Below, one piece after another: positions 29,668-44,837 of a DNA stretch of 64,000 nucleotides. The number at the start of each line of letters is the position of its first letter. Positions within the stretch are counted from its first letter, which is position 1. This stretch comes from Nitrosopumilaceae archaeon (GTDB lineage: Archaea > Thermoproteota > Nitrososphaeria > Nitrososphaerales > Nitrosopumilaceae), in contig OZ242365.1 in assembly GCA_965208905.1 (NCBI GenBank), positions 1,728,001 through 1,792,000 of the forward strand. The letters are read 5' to 3'. Position numbers and translations under genes: made by a program. The notes below the pieces were generated by a model. That model had not been told where the DNA came from, ran no database searches, and saw only the letters and a program-made list of their open reading frames with translations.

Positions 29668-31437
29668 CTATGGGTAACCAATAGCGTTAGTAAGATCGGC
29701 GTCCAGTAAATTGGCGTCCAGTAAGTTGGCTAACGTTAGGTTGGCTTCCTGTAAGTTGGCATCCCGTAGGTTGGCTCTATGTAGGTTGGTACCAACTAGG
29801 TTGGCGCCTACTAGGTCGGCGCCGTATAGGTTGGCGAACTGTAGGTCGGCGCCCAGTAGGTTGGCTAAAAATAGGTTGGCGCCTACTAGGTCGGCGCCGT
29901 ATAGGTTGGCATCATGTAGTATGGCGTACTGTAGGTTAGATTCTTGTAGGTTGACATCATGCATGTTGGCATCATATAGGTTGGCTCCCTGTAGGTTGGC
30001 TTCCAGTAGGTTGGCTCCCAGTAGGTTGGCTTCCTGTAGTATGGCATTCTGTAGGTCGGCGTAGAATAGGTTGGCGCCCTGTAGGTTGGCATCATATAGT
30101 ATGGCGCCCAATAATATGGCGCCCTGTAGGTTGGCGTTCTGTAGTATGGCATTCTGTAGGTTGGCGTTCTGTAGTATGGCATTCTGTAGGTTGGCGCCAT
30201 CTAGTGCGGCACCCCGTAGGTAGGCGCCCTGTAGGTCGGCATCAACTAGGTTGGTATTCCGTAGGTTGGCGCGCCGTAGGTCGGCTAAAGATAGTGTGGC
30301 GCCGGCTAGGTCGGCGTTCCGTAGGTTGGCGCCCTGTAGGTCAGCACCGTGTAGTTTAGCGCTCCGTAGGCTAGCGCCCTGTAGGTTGGCATCAACTAGG
30401 TCGGCGCCGTATAGGTTGGCGAACTGTAGGTCGGCGCCCAGTAGGTTGGCTAAAAATAGGTTGGCGCCTACTAGGTCGGCGCCGTATAGGTTGGCATCAT
30501 GTAGTATGGCGTACTGTAGGTTAGATTCTTGTAGGTTGACATCATGCATGTTGGCATCATATAGGTTGGCTCCCTGTAGGTTGGCTTCCTGTAGGTTGGC
30601 TCCCAGTAGGTTGGCTTCCTGTAGGTTGGCTTCCTGTAGTATGGCATTCTGTAGGTCGGCGTAGAATAGGTTGGCGCCCTGTAGGTTGGCATCATATAGT
30701 ATGGCGCCCAATAATATGGCGCCCTGTAGGTTGGCGTTCTGTAGTATGGCATTCTGTAGGTTGGCGTTCTGTAGTATGGCATTCTGTAGGTTGGCGCCAT
30801 CTAGTGCGGCACCCCGTAGGTAGGCGCCCTGTAGGTCGGCATCAACTAGGTTGGTATTCCGTAGGTTGGCGCGCCGTAGGTCGGCTAAAGATAGTGTGGC
30901 GCCGGCTAGGTCGGCGTTCCGTAGGTTGGCGCCCTGTAGGTCAGCACCGTGTAGTTTAGCGCTCCGTAGGCTAGCGCCCTGTAGGTTGGCATCAACTAGG
31001 TCGGCGCCGGCTAGGATGGCGCTCCGTAGGCTAGCGCCCTGTAGGTCGGCGTTCCGTAGGTTGGCGCCCTGTAGGTTGGCGAGGTTTAGTGTAGCGCCCT
31101 GTAGTTTAGCGCCCTCTAAGTTGGCGCCCTGTAGGTCGGCTAAAAATAGGTTGACATCCTGTAGGTTGGCGTCCGCTAGGTCGGCACCCTGTAGGTTGGC
31201 GTCCGCTAGGTCGGCACCCTGTAGGTTGGCGTTCTGTAGTATGGCACCCTGTAGGTTGACTTCATATAGGTTGGCGTTCTGTAGTATGGCGCCCGTTAGA
31301 TTAAAGCCGGCCATATTGGCGCCGGCAAAGTTCCGATTCTGTAAATCCTGGAATGAAAGATCTTCATGTGCGACTGCAGCCGGCCATGCAGACACAATAA
31401 GAATGAATGATAACAATAACAACAAGTAACCATTCAT
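29668..31437 (-). CDS. Secreted pentapeptide-repeat protein with about 600-bp internal tandem duplication
   Basis: Signal MNGYLLLLLSFILIVSAWPAAVA; ANLQG repeats; lines 30061-30400 identical to 30661-31000. Confidence 0.92.
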   Translation of the reverse strand: MNGYLLLLLSFILIVSAWPAAVAHEDLSFQDLQNRNFAGANMAGFNLTGAILQNANLYEVNLQGAILQNANLQGADLADANLQGADLADANLQDVNLFLADLQGANLEGAKLQGATLNLANLQGANLRNADLQGASLRSAILAGADLVDANLQGASLRSAKLHGADLQGANLRNADLAGATLSLADLRRANLRNTNLVDADLQGAYLRGAALDGANLQNAILQNANLQNAILQNANLQGAILLGAILYDANLQGANLFYADLQNAILQEANLQEANLLGANLQEANLQGANLYDANMHDVNLQESNLQYAILHDANLYGADLVGANLFLANLLGADLQFANLYGADLVDANLQGASLRSAKLHGADLQGANLRNADLAGATLSLADLRRANLRNTNLVDADLQGAYLRGAALDGANLQNAILQNANLQNAILQNANLQGAILLGAILYDANLQGANLFYADLQNAILQEANLLGANLLEANLQGANLYDANMHDVNLQESNLQYAILHDANLYGADLVGANLFLANLLGADLQFANLYGADLVGANLVGTNLHRANLRDANLQEANLTLANLLDANLLDADLTNAIGYP

Positions 31438-31477
31438 GTGTTTACGTCTGGCGTTGTGGTTATAGTTGTTTGTGGTG

Positions 31478-31881
31478 CATGGTTGACTAGTCATGTATCA
31501 TGGGTAGTCGATAAGACGCTGCATGGCCAGGGTTAAGGCGCCATACGGTTGACTAGTCATGCATCATGCAGCATGGCCAGTCGATAAGATACTGCATGGT
31601 TGACTAGTCATGTTGCATGTATCATGCATGATGCGTCTAAGTCCTGTTGGTTGACTAGTCATATTGCATGTATCATGTATCATGCATGATGCGTCTAAGT
31701 CATGTATGGTTGACTAGTCGAGTATGGCCAGTCGATAAGACGCTGCATGGCCAGGGTTAAGGCGCCATATGGTTGACTAGTCATGTATCATGTATAATGC
31801 ATCATGACTAGTCGAGTATGGTAGTGGCATGGCGGCCTGCATGCAGCCAGGGTTAAGATGCCATACTGTTGACTAGTCATA
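31478..31881. repeat. Non-coding modular repeat array, block 2
   Basis: Same modules as 28591-29645. Confidence 0.9.
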
Positions 31882-32170
31882 CAAGTCCAAGAGGCGGCTT
31901 GTGGAGAACGGCAAATATGAGTTGAACCGCGACAACACCACAATACACACAATACATGTGGGCTCATATTCGGATGACTAGTTGCCGGTCTAACCTTCCC
32001 TGCGCTCCAACCTATCAAGTCGTCTTTTAAGAGACTCGATTATACATGACGAATACTTTAGATTGTAGCCGCTTGTCGCAACCGAGCGCATTTCCAGATT
32101 CGCCCATATGGAATCGACCTTGCGCTCCAATTCATTCAGCCGCAATACCATATCCGTCATGGTTAATGCA

Positions 32171-33636
32171 GGGAATTATATACAAAAGTACACAACCCAG
32201 ATTCTGAGAGTTAATGCCTGAACCACGGATCTCGTCCATACAACTCCCCTTAAATACTAGTATGCCGTATTATATATTATGATACGTATAGTTAAGGTAC
32301 CGCTACGGAGGGATGTGTTGTTTGCAGGGTGGGCGCACCGCACGAATCATGCGTCAAGATATGTGTACAACCGCGCCGTATCAGAGTATTTGTTTGGTGG
32401 CGAATATATGGAGAGGGTGGTAGTGGACATCCTGCAGCCCTTCAAACTACCGGGCAAACTTAGTTTTACATCAGGTATGCTGGACGATGACTACCATACA
32501 TATGATTTTGGGCCATCAAAGAATGTATTAAAGTACGGCATGTTCAAGCAGCTTACGGAGTGGCGCGCTGAACATGCATGGGTATCTGACTTGCCTATGG
32601 TGTTTGGTAGGGGCGCCATACAGGATGCCTCTATCGCATGTAGAAGAGTTATACATGACAACTCCGGCCACGCGCCATACCGCCGCAAAGACGGCCGCAT
32701 CATATTGAGTTCCGTTACACCGCCTATACAGAAAGGCGAGCACACCATACATATCCCCGGATATGGTATTGTAGAGACCGCCAAGCCCATCAATGTATTA
32801 TGGGACATGCGCTCATTCAAGATAGTTGATGTCACCAAACGGGTGGACAAGCATACCAAACCATCAGACCACATGTTTGAGCTGCATATTGCCGTGCGTG
32901 TACCGGTCGAGCCGCACCGTAATACGGGTGTAATACGTGGTGTTGATGTGGGCGGCAAGCACCTCGCCGTCACGGTAGATACGGACGGCAACGTCACAAT
33001 ACATGATACAAGACACAGACGCATACTGCGGGAGATTGATGCTCTCAAGAGTTTGCGCGACCGCAAGACACGGCATGGCCGGAAGTGGCATATATTGAAT
33101 GACCAAATAAAGCGGCTATACAGGAAGGCCAACAACATAGCCGCGAACACCATAAATCAGACGATTGCGCAGATAACTAATGGTATGGACGCAGTCGTGG
33201 TCGAGTCGCTCTCTATACAGGATATGACCACACATGGCGGGAATTACAAACGCGCCATGAACCGTTCAATGCGGGAGAACCATGTTGGGGAGTTCCTGCG
33301 CAAGCTTGCGCAGTGGTGCGAGATGCATAACATACCGCTGTTGGGGGCATCGGCCAAATATACGAGCCAGACGTGCCATGTGTGTGGTCACGTAGACTCA
33401 GAGTCGCGTATATCACGCGACAAATTCATTTGCACTAACTGTACCAGGGTATTCCACGCGGATGTCAATGCCGCCTGGAACATTCTGCATAGGGCGGCGG
33501 GGAACGTCGTCCTAAGACGGCCGGGGCACAAGGAGGGCTACAAGCCAACACCTTCTATGCTCCACTCCATACAACGAGGTCGTCAGAAAAGGCTTGAGTG
33601 TGCAGCCGAGGCTGTGTACTTTTGTATATAATTCCC
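32171..33636 (+). mobile_element. Transposase-less TIR element with IS1595-type ends carrying tnpB
   Basis: Perfect 24-bp TIR GGGAATTATATACAAAAGTACACA at 32171-32194 and 33613-33636; TSD TTAATGCA at 32163-32170 and 33637-33644. Confidence 0.92.
32279..33631 (+). CDS. tnpB: RNA-guided endonuclease TnpB
   Basis: RYVYN N-terminus; RuvC-I RGVDVG; RuvC-II VVESL; YTSQTCHVCG...FICTNC zinc finger; RuvC-III HADVNAAWNI. Confidence 0.92.
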   Translation: MIRIVKVPLRRDVLFAGWAHRTNHASRYVYNRAVSEYLFGGEYMERVVVDILQPFKLPGKLSFTSGMLDDDYHTYDFGPSKNVLKYGMFKQLTEWRAEHAWVSDLPMVFGRGAIQDASIACRRVIHDNSGHAPYRRKDGRIILSSVTPPIQKGEHTIHIPGYGIVETAKPINVLWDMRSFKIVDVTKRVDKHTKPSDHMFELHIAVRVPVEPHRNTGVIRGVDVGGKHLAVTVDTDGNVTIHDTRHRRILREIDALKSLRDRKTRHGRKWHILNDQIKRLYRKANNIAANTINQTIAQITNGMDAVVVESLSIQDMTTHGGNYKRAMNRSMRENHVGEFLRKLAQWCEMHNIPLLGASAKYTSQTCHVCGHVDSESRISRDKFICTNCTRVFHADVNAAWNILHRAAGNVVLRRPGHKEGYKPTPSMLHSIQRGRQKRLECAAEAVYFCI

Positions 33637-33693
33637 TTAATGCATCCTCAACCTTTCCCATTATTCATCACCCCCTGTATGTCCGGTACAATT

Positions 33694-34740
33694 CTATGAC
33701 TCCAGCCTCATTGGAATGTATTGTTTTGTAATGTAATCCAGTCCCTTCTCGGCAAACGCCTGCAGCTCAACCTTCTGTTTTATCTTAATGAAGTGCTTTA
33801 GTTCGCGCTGCCACATGTCTCCTGCAAAGCGCGGGTCCAGTAGGGTTTGCTTACATTTCTTTATGTCTACCTCCTTCATGGGGATTGTAACTTTAAAGTC
33901 GTACTCTGTGATATCGGTGGCCCACACACCCATCCATTTGGCATTGGGTACGACCAAATCGCGCAGGTGCGCGGACTGCGCAGAGCCGGCAGATATCACC
34001 CTTGCTATGTACATCCCCCACGGGTCTGCATCCGTAAATACGTATAGTGGCAGCTTGAACTGCTTTGTTATTCGGTGCAATACAATACGCGCGTTGCGCG
34101 ATGCCTGGCCGTTCAGGTCTACAATGATTGCCTTGTATTTGTCAACAATGCCGTCCTCGTACAGTCTTGTGAACGTGTCTGTTTTTTCAACGGCAATAAC
34201 ACACTCGGCGCCCGTCCTTACATACTCGGCGGTCGCCAAGGCAGGCGATATGCTCATGCCGTCCGGTATGGCATCCAACCTCATCTGCTTTCCTATATAT
34301 TTTGGGACAGTGTATTGTATCAGCATATCACCGTATATCGAGTTGCGTTCTGCCGGATACACGCCCAATAACTCGCGCGGCGTCTGCGTGACAGCCTCCA
34401 GATCGAATATCGTCTTGTCGGACTCGGACTGCGCATCGAACATATCAGGTAGTACGGACATGGATGCATAATACAGTCCGCGCATCGTAGTTGTCTTGCC
34501 CTGTTGCAGTAGCCCGTCCGATAACGAGGCGGCCCATATGAGCTGCATCATTGATTTTGCCGTGCTTACGTTGCCTGCAGAGCGCTCGGCTACCCCGTCG
34601 CCCAACACGTACTGCTTTGTGGCATCATCATATACGATGTTTGACGTATTGCGCGAAGGCACGCCAATTTTGGGAAACTCGCCCCTCTGTACACTCCTCA
34701 GATACTCCTCTGCCATGTTGCGCAGTTTTTCGCGTATCAT
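33694..34740 (-). CDS. top6A: DNA topoisomerase VI subunit A
   Basis: TMRGLYY catalytic Tyr, IAVEK, FTDADPWG Toprim, KVELQA. Confidence 0.9.
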   Translation of the reverse strand: MIREKLRNMAEEYLRSVQRGEFPKIGVPSRNTSNIVYDDATKQYVLGDGVAERSAGNVSTAKSMMQLIWAASLSDGLLQQGKTTTMRGLYYASMSVLPDMFDAQSESDKTIFDLEAVTQTPRELLGVYPAERNSIYGDMLIQYTVPKYIGKQMRLDAIPDGMSISPALATAEYVRTGAECVIAVEKTDTFTRLYEDGIVDKYKAIIVDLNGQASRNARIVLHRITKQFKLPLYVFTDADPWGMYIARVISAGSAQSAHLRDLVVPNAKWMGVWATDITEYDFKVTIPMKEVDIKKCKQTLLDPRFAGDMWQRELKHFIKIKQKVELQAFAEKGLDYITKQYIPMRLES

Positions 34741-41909: not shown

Positions 41910-42083
41910 GATGTTATGTTGTGTTTGAGGCGTTTATGTGTTACAGGACACCATATGACGTGTATCCTGTACAGTGGAAATAGTCTGCGGGCGGAAACGA
42001 TGGTTTGTAGTGGAAACATAGGCAGGTCACAGATTTTCCAATTTTAGGGAATTATATACTTAAAATCAATCTTTATATAACCA

Positions 42084-43043
42084 GTGATTCTAAGGTGTAT
42101 AATGCAACAAGCACCAGGTAAAAGCCACCGTGAAGGAATAACACTAGTGAAACTGTTCAAGATGTTTCCCGATGATGAAACGGCTGAAAAATGGTTTGAG
42201 TCAAACATATGGGGTGATGAGCCATGCTGTCCGTATTGTGGCAATACAAATGTAACAAAGACTGTAAACCAATCACAGCCGTATTACTGTGCAGGTCGTG
42301 GGAATTGCCACAAGCGGTTCTCTGTCAAAGTCGGCACCATAATGGAGCATTCCCATATCACATACCAACAGTGGGCAATCGCAACATACCAGTTCATGAC
42401 TAATGTGAAAGGCATTAGTTCAATGAAGTTACATAGGGATTTAGGCATTACCCAAAAGTCCGCATGGTTCATGGTTCAACGGTTAAGAGAATCATGGAAG
42501 ACATTAGCAAGTGTAAACAAGATGGAAGGTCCAGTCGAGATTGACGAGGCTTATTTCGGTGGCAAGGAAGGTAACAAACACGCAGACAAGAAAAGACCAC
42601 ATAGTCAAGGTGGAGCCGGCAAGGTTGCCGTTGTGGGAATAAAAGACCGCAAGACAGGTACAGTAAGAGCTCAACCCGTACCAGAGACTACCACAGCCCG
42701 TCTTGGTGAATTTATTAAACAAAACACCGAGACGGGCGCTACCCATTATACAGATGAGCATAAAGCATACAAGAGTTTACCAAACCATCATGTAGTTAAT
42801 CATTCCGTTAGTCAATATGTCAACGGCATGGCACACACAAATGGCATAGAATCCTTTTGGGCTTTACTAAAGCGTGGTTACTATGGAACATTTCATCATA
42901 TTTCGGCAAAACACCTACACAGGTATGTCAATGAGTTTGCAGGTCGCTTGAATATACGCAACATGGATACAATAGACATGATGGTAAGCATGGTTCAAGG
43001 CATGGTTGGCAAACGACTTACGTATGACGTACTCATTTCATAG
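42084..43043 (+). CDS. IS1595-family DDE transposase
   Basis: CPYCG zinc ribbon, KGISSMKLHRDLG, VEIDEAYFGG, YTDE, HTNGIESFW, YVNEF. Confidence 0.93.
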   Translation: MILRCIMQQAPGKSHREGITLVKLFKMFPDDETAEKWFESNIWGDEPCCPYCGNTNVTKTVNQSQPYYCAGRGNCHKRFSVKVGTIMEHSHITYQQWAIATYQFMTNVKGISSMKLHRDLGITQKSAWFMVQRLRESWKTLASVNKMEGPVEIDEAYFGGKEGNKHADKKRPHSQGGAGKVAVVGIKDRKTGTVRAQPVPETTTARLGEFIKQNTETGATHYTDEHKAYKSLPNHHVVNHSVSQYVNGMAHTNGIESFWALLKRGYYGTFHHISAKHLHRYVNEFAGRLNIRNMDTIDMMVSMVQGMVGKRLTYDVLIS

Positions 43044-44491
43044 TAGCAGGTATCGCACGTGGCTTCAATATAGAGAGATCTGGTTTGATACCTTTTGATT
43101 TTAGTGTGGCGATTAAGTATGCCAAATCCCTATTTCCTTTTGTACTGTTACATGCTCCACATAATAACATCAGATTATCAATATGGTCAGTGCCACCTTT
43201 GCTTTGCGGTATGATGTGGTCTATTGTAAAATTCCTAAACGGAAAGTGTACATTACATAGACAACGGCCTTCTTGCCTACCGTATAGTTCATGTTTGCGT
43301 GTGCGGTAATTTGGTATTGCGCCTTGGTCAGTACGTTTAGGTGCCTTATCGCGGTTGGTGATCTCATAATGCCTTAACCCCATAGTGCGTTGAGTTCGCA
43401 TGGCGACAAGTTCAACGGCCTTGTGCGATAGATCAATACCGACCCATTGACGGTTTAGTTTTTCGGCAGCCACACATGCCGTTGCGCACCCACAAAACGG
43501 ATCAAACACAATATCACCCTCATTGCTTGAGGCTTTTATAATGCGTTCTAGTAATGCTAATGGTTTTTGGGTTGGATAGCCTAATGCTTCTCCACTACTT
43601 GAAATTCTCGGTATATCATTCCAAAAATCATCTATAGGAACACCAACGTAATCTTCTGCATACTTACGGCGCTCTAACTTATTATTCTCATGTATTACCA
43701 CATTTCCCTTATCGTATTCTTCTTCCAATCGTTTTTTGCTCAATCGCCATCCACTAGGATGTGGGTTAGTAAATCCTCGCCATGTATAACATAGGTTAGG
43801 ACGATCACCCATTGATTTGGAACAAAATATCGGTATACCAGTCTTATATCGTCTCCCATCAACATCCACTTTAGGAAATTGTTCTCTCATTTGCTCTGAC
43901 GTAAGTTGCTGATATGGTCGCAATGTGGTTGTAGCAGTCTTAACATAGAATAACAGAATGTCAGTATTGCGGCCCCACTGTTTTGGTTTATGTTGAGAAC
44001 CTTTTCCTCTTTTATCATTGCGTTGCCAATGTACTTCATTACGAAAATTGTCTTTTCCAAATATTGCATCCATGACCAGTTTGAGGTAGTGACTGGCAGT
44101 TGGATCGCAATGTAAGTATATAGACCCCCCCCCCCCCGCGCAGGATCCGCCTCATCTCGATAAGGCGAATTCCCATCATGATAAGATATGACATCATGGA
44201 TTTGCCATGCGTATTACGAGTCGCATCAATAACAGCATGCAATGCGGGTTCACTGTCAGCCAAGTAGCCATGCCATGCAACATCCACATCACTCAATGAC
44301 CATGTATCCTTGAAAGCGGCCCCGGCCGCCTTAGAACCTATTGGTGCTTCATATGAGCGATTGGAATTGAATGGCGGATCTAAATATATCAAATCGACTG
44401 ATTCAGAGTTCATGCCCCGCATTATATCCAAGTTATCACCTGTCCACATGGTACGGTTTGACCAGTTAGGATCGTTCATACTATACATCAT
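43033..44491 (-). pseudogene. N4/N6 DNA methyltransferase fused to HNH nuclease, frameshifted at a G13 tract
   Basis: DLIYLDPPFNS; frameshift; YPTQKP, DPFCGCAT; C-terminal DHIIPQSKGG...NLMLLCGACN. Confidence 0.85.
44125..44137 (-). repeat. G13 homopolymer (C13 on +) within the methyltransferase
   Basis: G12 restores RILR-GGGG-SIYLHCDPTASHYLKLVMDAIFG. Confidence 0.85.
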
Positions 44492-44837
44492 ACATTATCG
44501 GTATATTTGACTACTGCCCAACAGTTTAAACCATGTGATCAAACTTTCTTAACCATACGTCACGTTTATAAAATAAGGATATGAAAGCAATTTCAAGGGC
44601 TCAAATCAACGCTCTTTTCGTCATTGGGGTCACTCCCTTTGGCTTTTGTAGTTTTATCATTGCCTGTCTTGTTGCTTTCATAACATACCTAGGAAATATG
44701 GATTATATAAAGATTGATTTTAAGTATATAATTCCCCAATTTTATGTTACAAATTTCCCAACCGTATAGTAGGTCACTATTTCTTCCCAATTCCCCCCAG
44801 ACGCAACGCTTTTCCAGATAGCTAGGATAACTCACTT

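Follow-up and report, generated by a model that had tools for sequence, protein, structure and literature searches.

Elements of the IS200/IS605 group have no terminal inverted repeats (TIRs) and make no target-site duplication; they carry subterminal hairpins, insert 3' of a fixed site of 4-5 nt and use a Y1 TnpA. Fanzor1 and Fanzor2 were reportedly placed in eukaryotic cut-and-paste transposons by Bao and Jurka in 2013. Altae-Tran et al. 2023 (PNAS, PMC10691335) described six branches of TnpB associated with DDE transposases, DDE-1 to DDE-6, with inverted terminal repeats, together with solo TnpBs that lie within the same ends as transposase-bearing copies and were inferred to be moved in trans. 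The DDE partner named in the text of that paper is IS630, and the passages on this subject in a 2026 review (PMC13565253) name ISL2, IS630 and IS1031. Here we describe a 1466-bp element (32171-33636) with tnpB as its only gene, found in a 64-kb window of the genome of a sponge-associated ammonia-oxidising archaeon (contig OZ242365.1). Judging from its sequence, we consider it probable that this is a non-autonomous element of the IS1595 lineage, with a TnpB nuclease and its guide RNA as sole cargo, that it would be moved in trans, and that ATNG would serve as its transposon-adjacent motif (TAM).

The faithfulness of TnpB to IS605 and IS607, and its use to a cut-and-paste DDE transposon, are treated as an open question in the 2026 review (PMC13565253). 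The term IS1595 does not occur in the main text of Altae-Tran et al. 2023 (PMC10691335), whose locus lists stand in the supplements. Our literature searches returned no paper pairing TnpB with IS1595 by title or abstract, and none relevant to IS1595 and Thaumarchaeota by title.

Coordinates are positions in the window, that is, the whole 64-kb stretch analysed, unless prefixed with G000:C1, which denotes the whole contig of the source genome (G000; 2.21 Mb, single contig, 99.6% complete). G001-G009 are related genomes, of which G005 belongs to the same genus as G000. We call the tnpB elements related to the 32171-33636 element family A, and a second TnpB family, about 33% identical, family B.

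Structure of the tnpB element

The element is bounded by perfect 24-bp TIRs (left, 32171-32194, plus strand; right, 33613-33636, minus strand), an inverted repeat that stretches to 28 nt at 96%, and is flanked by the 8-bp duplication TTAATGCA (left copy, 32163-32170; right copy, 33637-33644). The junctions read ATGG TTAATGCA followed by GGGAATTATATACAAAAGTACACA at the left end, and TGTGTACTTTTGTATATAATTCCC followed by TTAATGCA and TCCTC at the right end. A non-coding region (32195-32278, plus strand) precedes tnpB (32279-33631, plus strand, 450 aa), which is the sole open reading frame (ORF) longer than 220 aa between the element ends. With its centre some 26 nt upstream of the ATG, the TTAAATA at 32250-32256 may be an archaeal TATA box serving a leaderless mRNA of tnpB. 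The TAA of tnpB (33629-33631) falls within the right TIR, 5 nt short of the element end.

TnpB matched the Pfam families OrfB_IS605 (8.9e-09) and Cas12f1-like_TNB (1.2e-16), both beyond the cut-offs. In alignments with solved TnpBs (8iaz, 8exa and others), D223, E309 and D395 of the intact RuvC domain and C366/C369/C385/C388 of the CxxC...CxxC zinc finger fall on their catalytic and zinc residues, and the D-E-D triad and zinc cysteines are invariant in the alignment of TnpB relatives. By its RuvC-like D-E-D triad, and by the zinc finger placed between RuvC-II and RuvC-III, the protein belongs to TnpB. An earlier note on this DNA had reported the RuvC acidic motifs, the zinc finger, tnpB as sole gene, the 24-bp TIRs, the 8-bp duplication and the stop codon in the right TIR; all of these were confirmed.

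Empty alleles in a related genome

The unoccupied site is present in G005 as ...cgtcATGG TTAATGCA tcctcaac..., with the 8-mer there once. In the window, the insertion breaks a small host ORF (31990-33661, minus strand), leaving 56 codons on one side (31990-32160) and the first codons on the other (33645-33661); the G005 ortholog is uninterrupted, 88% identical, and has a 66-codon open frame. The clean insertion proposed in the earlier note is thus confirmed by the empty allele itself. The search for such alleles, also proposed there, found them in G005 for three family-A insertions including the window copy. For the two others the flanks overlap by 7-8 nt, which corresponds to one duplication copy. 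Around the family-A insertions that G005 lacks, its flanks are 97-98% identical to those of G000.

IS1595 transposons with the same termini

The window has exactly four copies of the terminus GGGAATTATATAC, two at the ends of the tnpB element and two at the ends of an element at 42047-44736; allowing up to two mismatches, we found seven matches against 2.13 expected, and none of 100 shuffles reached seven. The second element is an autonomous member of the IS1595 family (42039-44744 including duplications, plus strand), with the 8-bp duplication CAATTTTA (42039-42046 and 44737-44744), 34-bp TIRs (42047-42080 and 44703-44736) and a transposase gene (42084-43043, plus strand, 319 aa) that matches DDE_Tnp_IS1595 (2.9e-40) and Zn_ribbon_IS1595. 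The identity of the first 13 nt of the TIR to this terminus was therefore correctly noted before.

G000 has four intact IS1595 transposase genes (100, 84, 75 and 75% identity), and all four elements end GGGAATTATA, each with an 8-bp duplication. Identity to the start of the tnpB element covers 13 nt in IS1595 copies 1 and 2 and 10 nt in every one of the four. Copies 3 and 4 agree with each other at 2130 of 2131 positions and sit at sites with different duplications, suggesting recent IS1595 movement. The IS1595 transposase occurs in every one of 10 genomes of the genus, and the relatives' copies end GGGAATTAT with 8-bp duplications.

We also looked for the usual partners of TnpB. Y1_Tnp (PF01797) and Resolvase (PF00239, for the serine TnpA) gave no match at E<=0.01 in the complete G000 genome, although the control search for Y1_Tnp was positive in 6 of 14 reference genomes. 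The genome thus offers neither of the two canonical partners of TnpB. The element fits neither IS200/IS605 (no TIR or duplication; a Y1 HUH TnpA in the element or genome) nor IS607 (serine-recombinase TnpA; no TIR or duplication), as the earlier note had argued from its 24-bp TIRs and 8-bp duplications. Like IS1595 members it has TIRs matching the transposase-bearing copies and an 8-bp duplication, and it has no DDE_Tnp_IS1595 transposase of its own. As tnpB is its sole gene, the element is non-autonomous, and the transposases are elsewhere in G000. Given the shared termini, the 8-bp duplication, the lack of a Y1 or serine TnpA match and the near-identical IS1595 copies, mobilisation in trans of a non-autonomous IS1595-family derivative by the IS1595 transposase is the best explanation available, and the proposal of the earlier note stands in that qualified form.

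Further sequences in the genome carry similar ends. Gene-less elements of 45-430 bp with GGGAATTAT-type ends and 8-bp duplications lie at G000:C1:882738-882782, 658457-658571, 341419-341790 and 759618-760047; these are miniature inverted-repeat transposable element (MITE)-like derivatives of the same IS1595 lineage. A lone GGGAATTTTATAC at 770-782, with one mismatch to the terminus and no partner end in the window, is a possible solo end. The autonomous element in the window carries a passenger N6/N4 DNA methyltransferase-HNH gene (43033-44491, minus strand) in two overlapping frames with the break near a run of G or C, and the IS1595 copy at G000:C1:1043578-1046414 has one 467-codon passenger ORF at the matching place.

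A predicted omegaRNA that includes the right TIR

The last 240 nt of the element, strongly conserved between lineages whose TnpBs are 57% identical, were taken as the predicted omegaRNA scaffold (33397-33636, plus strand), which overlaps the 3' end of tnpB and reaches the element's last base. RNAalifold on the 240-nt alignment gave 40 pairs, of which 9 were changed on both sides. It missed a terminal hairpin, since MAFFT misaligned the G006 group there, and we modelled this hairpin separately. The predicted hairpin has 14 bp (33593-33624, plus strand), its 3' arm being the inner right TIR, and is followed by the 12-nt tail TATATAATTCCC (33625-33636; in RNA letters UAUAUAAUUCCC) and then by the flank.

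Of eight sequences folded, six had the terminal hairpin in the minimum-energy structure and a seventh had it in the centroid; the window copy, folded with its own flank, favours another fold. A covariance model found the hairpin in 21 right ends, including those of G006 and G001. In an alignment of 16 distinct sequences, 92.2% of cells were paired and 5 of 14 pairs showed compensatory changes, counts that are inflated because the alignment was fitted to the structure. The covariation score was 0.381, against 0.233 in shuffles (none of 500 reached it) and at most 0.146 when the partners were slid. G.U pairs are frequent in the hairpin, which points to an RNA of the tnpB strand. Upstream of it, a helix loop GGGAA could pair with the terminal UUCCC, which is invariant across copies, as a pseudoknot; such a pseudoknot is described for TnpB RNAs in the text of Yoon et al. 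2023 (PMC10711439). An Rfam search of 32000-33800 at E<=1 returned only a sub-threshold hepatitis delta virus (HDV)-like match (20.6 bits against a gathering score of 44).

If the geometry is that usual for TnpB, and given where the ATNG motif described below lies, the predicted guide would be TTAATGCATCCTCAACCTTT (33637-33656, plus strand), made of the right duplication copy and flank. The earlier note had expected an omegaRNA including the TIR and a guide starting with the duplication; the covarying hairpin and the one-sided ATNG lend both indirect support. If the prediction holds, the element would be an example in which a guide RNA scaffold and an inferred transposase binding site share the same bases, with the inner TIR as hairpin arm and UUCCC as a possible pseudoknot strand.

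Three sponge metatranscriptomes matched with 5-8% of words, and several runs of unspecified kind also matched. Assembled contigs of these runs cover parts of related copies at 90-99% likeness, and one 433-nt contig of an RNA library, which could be DNA carry-over, comprises the final 97 nt of the element and continues into the flank of another copy. Being assembled contigs, these data are uninformative on RNA ends, strand and level, and thus give no evidence for or against the omegaRNA.

A one-sided ATNG motif beside the insertions

The left duplication copy is adjoined by ATGG (32159-32162, plus strand), which is also present in the G005 empty allele and matches the family consensus A-T-N-G. 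For flank counts we oriented the elements by tnpB and used 23 independent insertions, 17 in G000 and 6 in G006. The base 5' of the left duplication was G in 20 of 23 insertions, with T two positions before it in 15 and A at the first position in 13. For G000 alone, the G was found on the tnpB-upstream side in 15 of 17 insertions (binomial p=2e-8), compared with 4 of 17 at the mirror position (Fisher p=3.6e-4), and for G006 the corresponding numbers were 5 of 6 and 0 of 6. At GGGAATTAT-type ends not assigned to a TnpB family a G stood there in 8 of 31 cases (hand count), and in family B, which has the same termini, in 5 of 21.

In the empty site, ATNG is directly followed by the duplication and right flank, the sequence that would follow the scaffold in a read-through RNA, while the occupied right junction has TCCC where the empty site has ATNG. 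This geometry fits a TAM with its target and a guide made of duplication plus right flank. We read ATNG as the putative footprint of TnpB-dependent retention or homing, with an asymmetric preference of the transposase as the main rival. The one-sided flank signature and the covarying hairpin with the inner right end as an arm are new here. A genuine TAM footprint would be natural evidence, within a genome, that TnpB-dependent retention shapes which DDE-transposon insertions survive.

One empty allele deserves separate mention: G005 (L095 1497-1508) has ATAT where the occupied site G000:C1:339632-339643 has ATAG. The difference falls exactly on the conserved G, and as a single case it may be chance.

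Proposed mechanism and its main rival

In the mechanism that we propose, an IS1595 transposase made elsewhere in the genome would bind the GGGAATTAT... ends and move the element, and transcription of tnpB would continue through the right end. The omegaRNA scaffold would be formed by the last ~240 nt, with the final hairpin using the inner TIR and the last 12 nt being the transposase-recognised terminus; the RNA would run on into the flank, giving a guide of 8-bp duplication plus right flank. In the empty allele, the left-flank ATNG would act as TAM, with the guide-matching sequence immediately on its 3' side. TnpB would then cut the empty or precisely excised site and spare the occupied one, which has TCCC before that sequence, and repair from a filled copy would restore the element. 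Copies landing beside ATNG would persist, and this would explain the one-sided motif.

Several points weigh against this mechanism. Only 13 terminal nt are common to the tnpB element and the IS1595 copies, and the subterminal TTTATAT of the latter is missing from it, so binding by those transposases is not assured. The base bias continues inside the duplication (T at position 1 in 17 of 23, A at position 3 in 15 of 23 and at position 4 in 14 of 23); the motif could therefore be an asymmetric target preference of the transpososome, or else belong to a TAM that takes in part of the duplication, as Fanzor TAMs do. Marine ammonia-oxidising archaea are not known to be highly polyploid, which limits homing between chromosome copies. 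As the 2026 review points out (PMC13565253), cut-and-paste excision leaves a break anyway, so that the advantage of carrying TnpB is harder to see than with IS605.

The alternative that survives best is that the one-sided ATNG and the T-N-A-A inside the duplication together reflect the target preference of an asymmetric IS1595 transpososome, with TnpB as simple cargo or in another role. The conserved positions do span the duplication boundary, the IS1595 copies themselves sit in AT-rich 8-mers, and the left and right ends of the element diverge beyond 24 bp, which makes an oriented complex possible. Yet the first 24 bp are identical at both ends, so a symmetric preference would be expected, and the mirror position carries no signal. 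G is at background level at the other GGGAATTAT-ended ends in the hand count given above, and family B lacks the motif in spite of its identical termini and has GC-rich duplications where those of family A are AT-rich, in the same GC-rich genome. We regard a transpososome preference as possible but rather unlikely.

More speculatively, the cargo and not only the transposase might decide where IS1595-type elements end up: family A lies beside an ATNG that would suit a TnpB TAM, and family B, with identical termini, lies 16 nt downstream of the TATA-box-like TAWAAR described below. TnpB, through TAM binding or as a ribonucleoprotein (RNP), or else a transcription complex, would then physically steer or license integration instead of only filtering insertions afterwards. 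We hold this to be quite unlikely. If true, it would be a natural, CRISPR-free coupling of TnpB to the target choice of a DDE transposase, and a primitive counterpart of CRISPR-associated transposons.

Copies, spread and selection of family A

A six-frame search of G000 gave 63 TnpB matches. Counting the window copy, 14 of these are full-length, without stops and 80-100% identical to the window TnpB; one more family copy has a stop, and there are fragments, several of the matches being truncated or interrupted. The search for GGGAATTATATAC-bounded tnpB copies at other sites that the earlier note had suggested yielded 17 family-A elements in G000 placed by both ends, each at its own site, and more in sister species. 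Perfect 8-bp duplications, all different, flank 12 of the 17, and the duplications of the other 5 are imperfect. Pairwise DNA identity among 15 family-A copies ranges from 76.5 to 98.2% (median 86.7%). The tnpB copies are under purifying selection, with a median ratio of nonsynonymous to synonymous substitution rates (dN/dS) of 0.21 over the 105 pairs among 15 paralogous copies.

In G006 we found six elements whose TnpB is 57% identical, with GGGAATTATATAC termini and perfect 8-bp duplications in five of six; the ORF terminates within the TIR in both the G000 and G006 lineages. Copies in G008 are 82% identical and end as the window element does. TnpB matches at E<=1e-40 were present in 7 of 41 related genomes (G000 included), all of one genus; sampling of 15 further genera of the family and 16 further families of the order gave no such match. 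Among 5.8 billion proteins, only 47 reached E<=1e-20 with TnpB. A scan of genome contigs gave 12 loci, 10 of them at 54-68% identity in metagenome-assembled genomes (MAGs) of Nitrosopumilaceae or Cenarchaeum, the other two at 34% (a Nitrosopumilaceae MAG) and 23% (a cyanobacterial MAG). A scan of metagenome contigs with the TnpB alignment gave 86 pattern matches and no relatives. By record titles, the TnpB group sits in Nitrosopumilaceae, beside Cenarchaeum MAGs.

The identical arrangement in the 57%-identical lineages implies that the architecture is older than the split of these species. Taken together, the sequences indicate a family that is large, old and still selected. The earlier note had written of TnpB as "captured"; taken as a single recent event, this is not supported, because copies 57% identical in other species have the same architecture and at least two further families use GGGAATTAT ends.

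A different reading of the same copies is that the family is a decaying relic, its members immobile and tnpB without present function. The range of identities between copies suggests that most insertions are old, and the five imperfect duplications and the truncated or interrupted copies are what decay would leave. Such a relic is improbable in view of the 14 full-length, stop-free copies, the dN/dS of 0.21 across 15 copies, the single family-A pair at 98.2% identity, the two family-B elements identical at 1418 of 1420 positions at different sites, and the insertions absent from the close relative G005 between flanks 97-98% identical.

Other tnpB families in the genus

Besides family A, at least two other TnpB families (about 33% identical to it) use GGGAATTAT ends. 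Family B (loci L063-L092, in G000, G001, G002, G006, G007 and G009; for example G000:C1:352058-353477) is plentiful throughout the genus. Its elements have GGGAATTAT termini and 8-bp duplications, the latter being GC-rich in genomes where those of family A are AT-rich. The family-B tnpB elements of G006 and G001 begin GGGAATTATCGG, like the IS1595 copies of G004 and G001, and one family-B empty allele was confirmed in G005.

The sharing of ends bears on another explanation, in which TnpB, with its RNase H fold, is itself the transposase, and the IS1595-like termini come from shared ancestry of the ends or from convergence. It is true that tnpB is the sole gene, that the tnpB-only elements are multicopy and that three TnpB families have similar ends. 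The 8-bp duplication and GGGAATTATA terminus are, however, exactly those of the transposase-bearing IS1595 copies of G000, and a terminus shared by TnpB families only 33% identical is better accounted for by a common external transposase. We know of no TnpB that catalyses strand transfer. The account given in the 2026 review (PMC13565253) agrees on this, and we consider a transposase role of TnpB very improbable.

Least credible of all is an ordinary IS605- or IS607-type tnpB element nested in an older IS1595-derived MITE, with TIRs and tnpB unit independent of each other: nesting of insertion sequences is common and G000 has many short gene-less GGGAATTAT-ended elements, but there is no space for separate ends with the stop codon inside the TIR, the conserved RNA hairpin draws one of its arms from the TIR and shows covariation with it, the arrangement is unchanged at 57% protein identity in other species, G000 has no Y1 or serine TnpA match, and no family-A copy without TIRs was found among the copies examined.

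Other features of these families are as follows. In the tnpB-upstream flank of 21 family-B elements with good duplications, counted from the TIR, T stands at -24 in 16 elements, and A at -23 in 16, at -21 in 14 and at -20 in 13. These positions make up a TATA-box-like TAWAAR that lies 16 nt upstream of the duplication; C is also found at -13 (13/21), and the mirror flank shows none of this. An association of family B with host gene starts was not supported, since ORFs of at least 80 aa started near the duplication in 8 of 21 cases rightward and, as control, in 8 of 21 leftward.

A third tnpB-only family (G000:C1:250605-252075 and 2209813-2211265) has different inverted ends, TGGGCTGTGACGTTATCT..., with a perfect 8-bp duplication GTTCAGAG at one copy and one matching at 7 of 8 positions at the other, and no partner transposase was found for it. 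For the TGGGCTGTGACG-ended tnpB family, no convincing DDE partner was found around weak IS1595-like matches and a 1054-bp element. A fourth family (G000:C1:1455264-1456902 and 2049469-2051107) has almost the TIR of family A and no matching duplications; the 8-mer TAATTTCC flanks one copy on the right and the other on the left, which suggests recombination between copies. Apart from the tnpB families, the window encodes a 608-aa pentapeptide-repeat protein (29668-31494, minus strand) in which a long internal block is duplicated almost exactly.

Comparison with known systems

With intact TnpB, a defined partner family, dozens of independent insertions, empty alleles and a candidate ATNG TAM, this lineage offers a compact natural test system for the question that the review discusses. 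For tool builders, too, a nuclease of 450 aa with ATNG as predicted TAM may be of interest.

Compared with IS200/IS605 elements, the element differs in its 24-bp TIRs and 8-bp duplications and in a genome with no Y1 TnpA match. It resembles the IS1341 group, the tnpB-only members of IS200/IS605, in its size of about 1.4 kb, in tnpB as sole gene, and in its predicted omegaRNA over the 3' end of the gene and predicted right-flank guide.

As with Fanzor1 and Fanzor2, a nuclease of the TnpB family is carried by transposons that have TIRs and make duplications (as described in the relevant parts of Yoon et al. 2023, PMC10711439, and of PMC13565253), and the guide RNA scaffold, here predicted, runs through the TIR, with RNA and transposase sharing bases. 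According to the review's section on Fanzors (PMC13565253), the 5' duplication copy is part of the TAM and the 3' copy part of the scaffold, and their duplication is short and fixed (TA, TTAA). The duplication here is 8 bp and variable; it therefore cannot be scaffold and would be the first 8 nt of the guide, the seed, with the candidate TAM outside. Also unlike Fanzors, the window TnpB has the canonical catalytic layout and prokaryotic size (450 aa).

With the IS1595 family the element shares the GGGAATTATA terminus, AT-rich 8-bp duplications and co-resident autonomous copies, one with a methyltransferase-HNH passenger. It departs from the members of that family in that tnpB has wholly replaced the transposase gene, only 13 terminal nt are shared, and the inner TIR is an arm of a predicted RNA hairpin.

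The closest relatives in organisation are the DDE-associated TnpBs, defined by the inverted repeats of a DDE transposon and a tnpB 3' end within 250 bp of the transposon end. As in DDE-1 to DDE-6, tnpB lies between such repeats with its 3' end less than 250 bp from the end, here with the stop 5 nt away, and as for the solo TnpBs among them, the ends are the same as those of transposase-bearing copies and movement in trans is inferred. Unlike DDE-1 to DDE-6, tnpB is never in one unit with a transposase, the host is a thaumarchaeon, and a flank motif lies outside a variable 8-bp duplication; the probable partner is IS1595, where the text of the papers names IS630, ISL2 and IS1031. As DDE-borne and solo TnpBs were already described in the main text of Altae-Tran et al. 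2023 (PMC10691335), the "new class of RNA-guided transposon" announced in the earlier note cannot be upheld, although its interpretation is otherwise right in substance. The element is a variant of DDE-borne TnpB, non-autonomous and multicopy, with which IS1595 and Thaumarchaeota join the short list of prokaryotic DDE-TnpB pairings.

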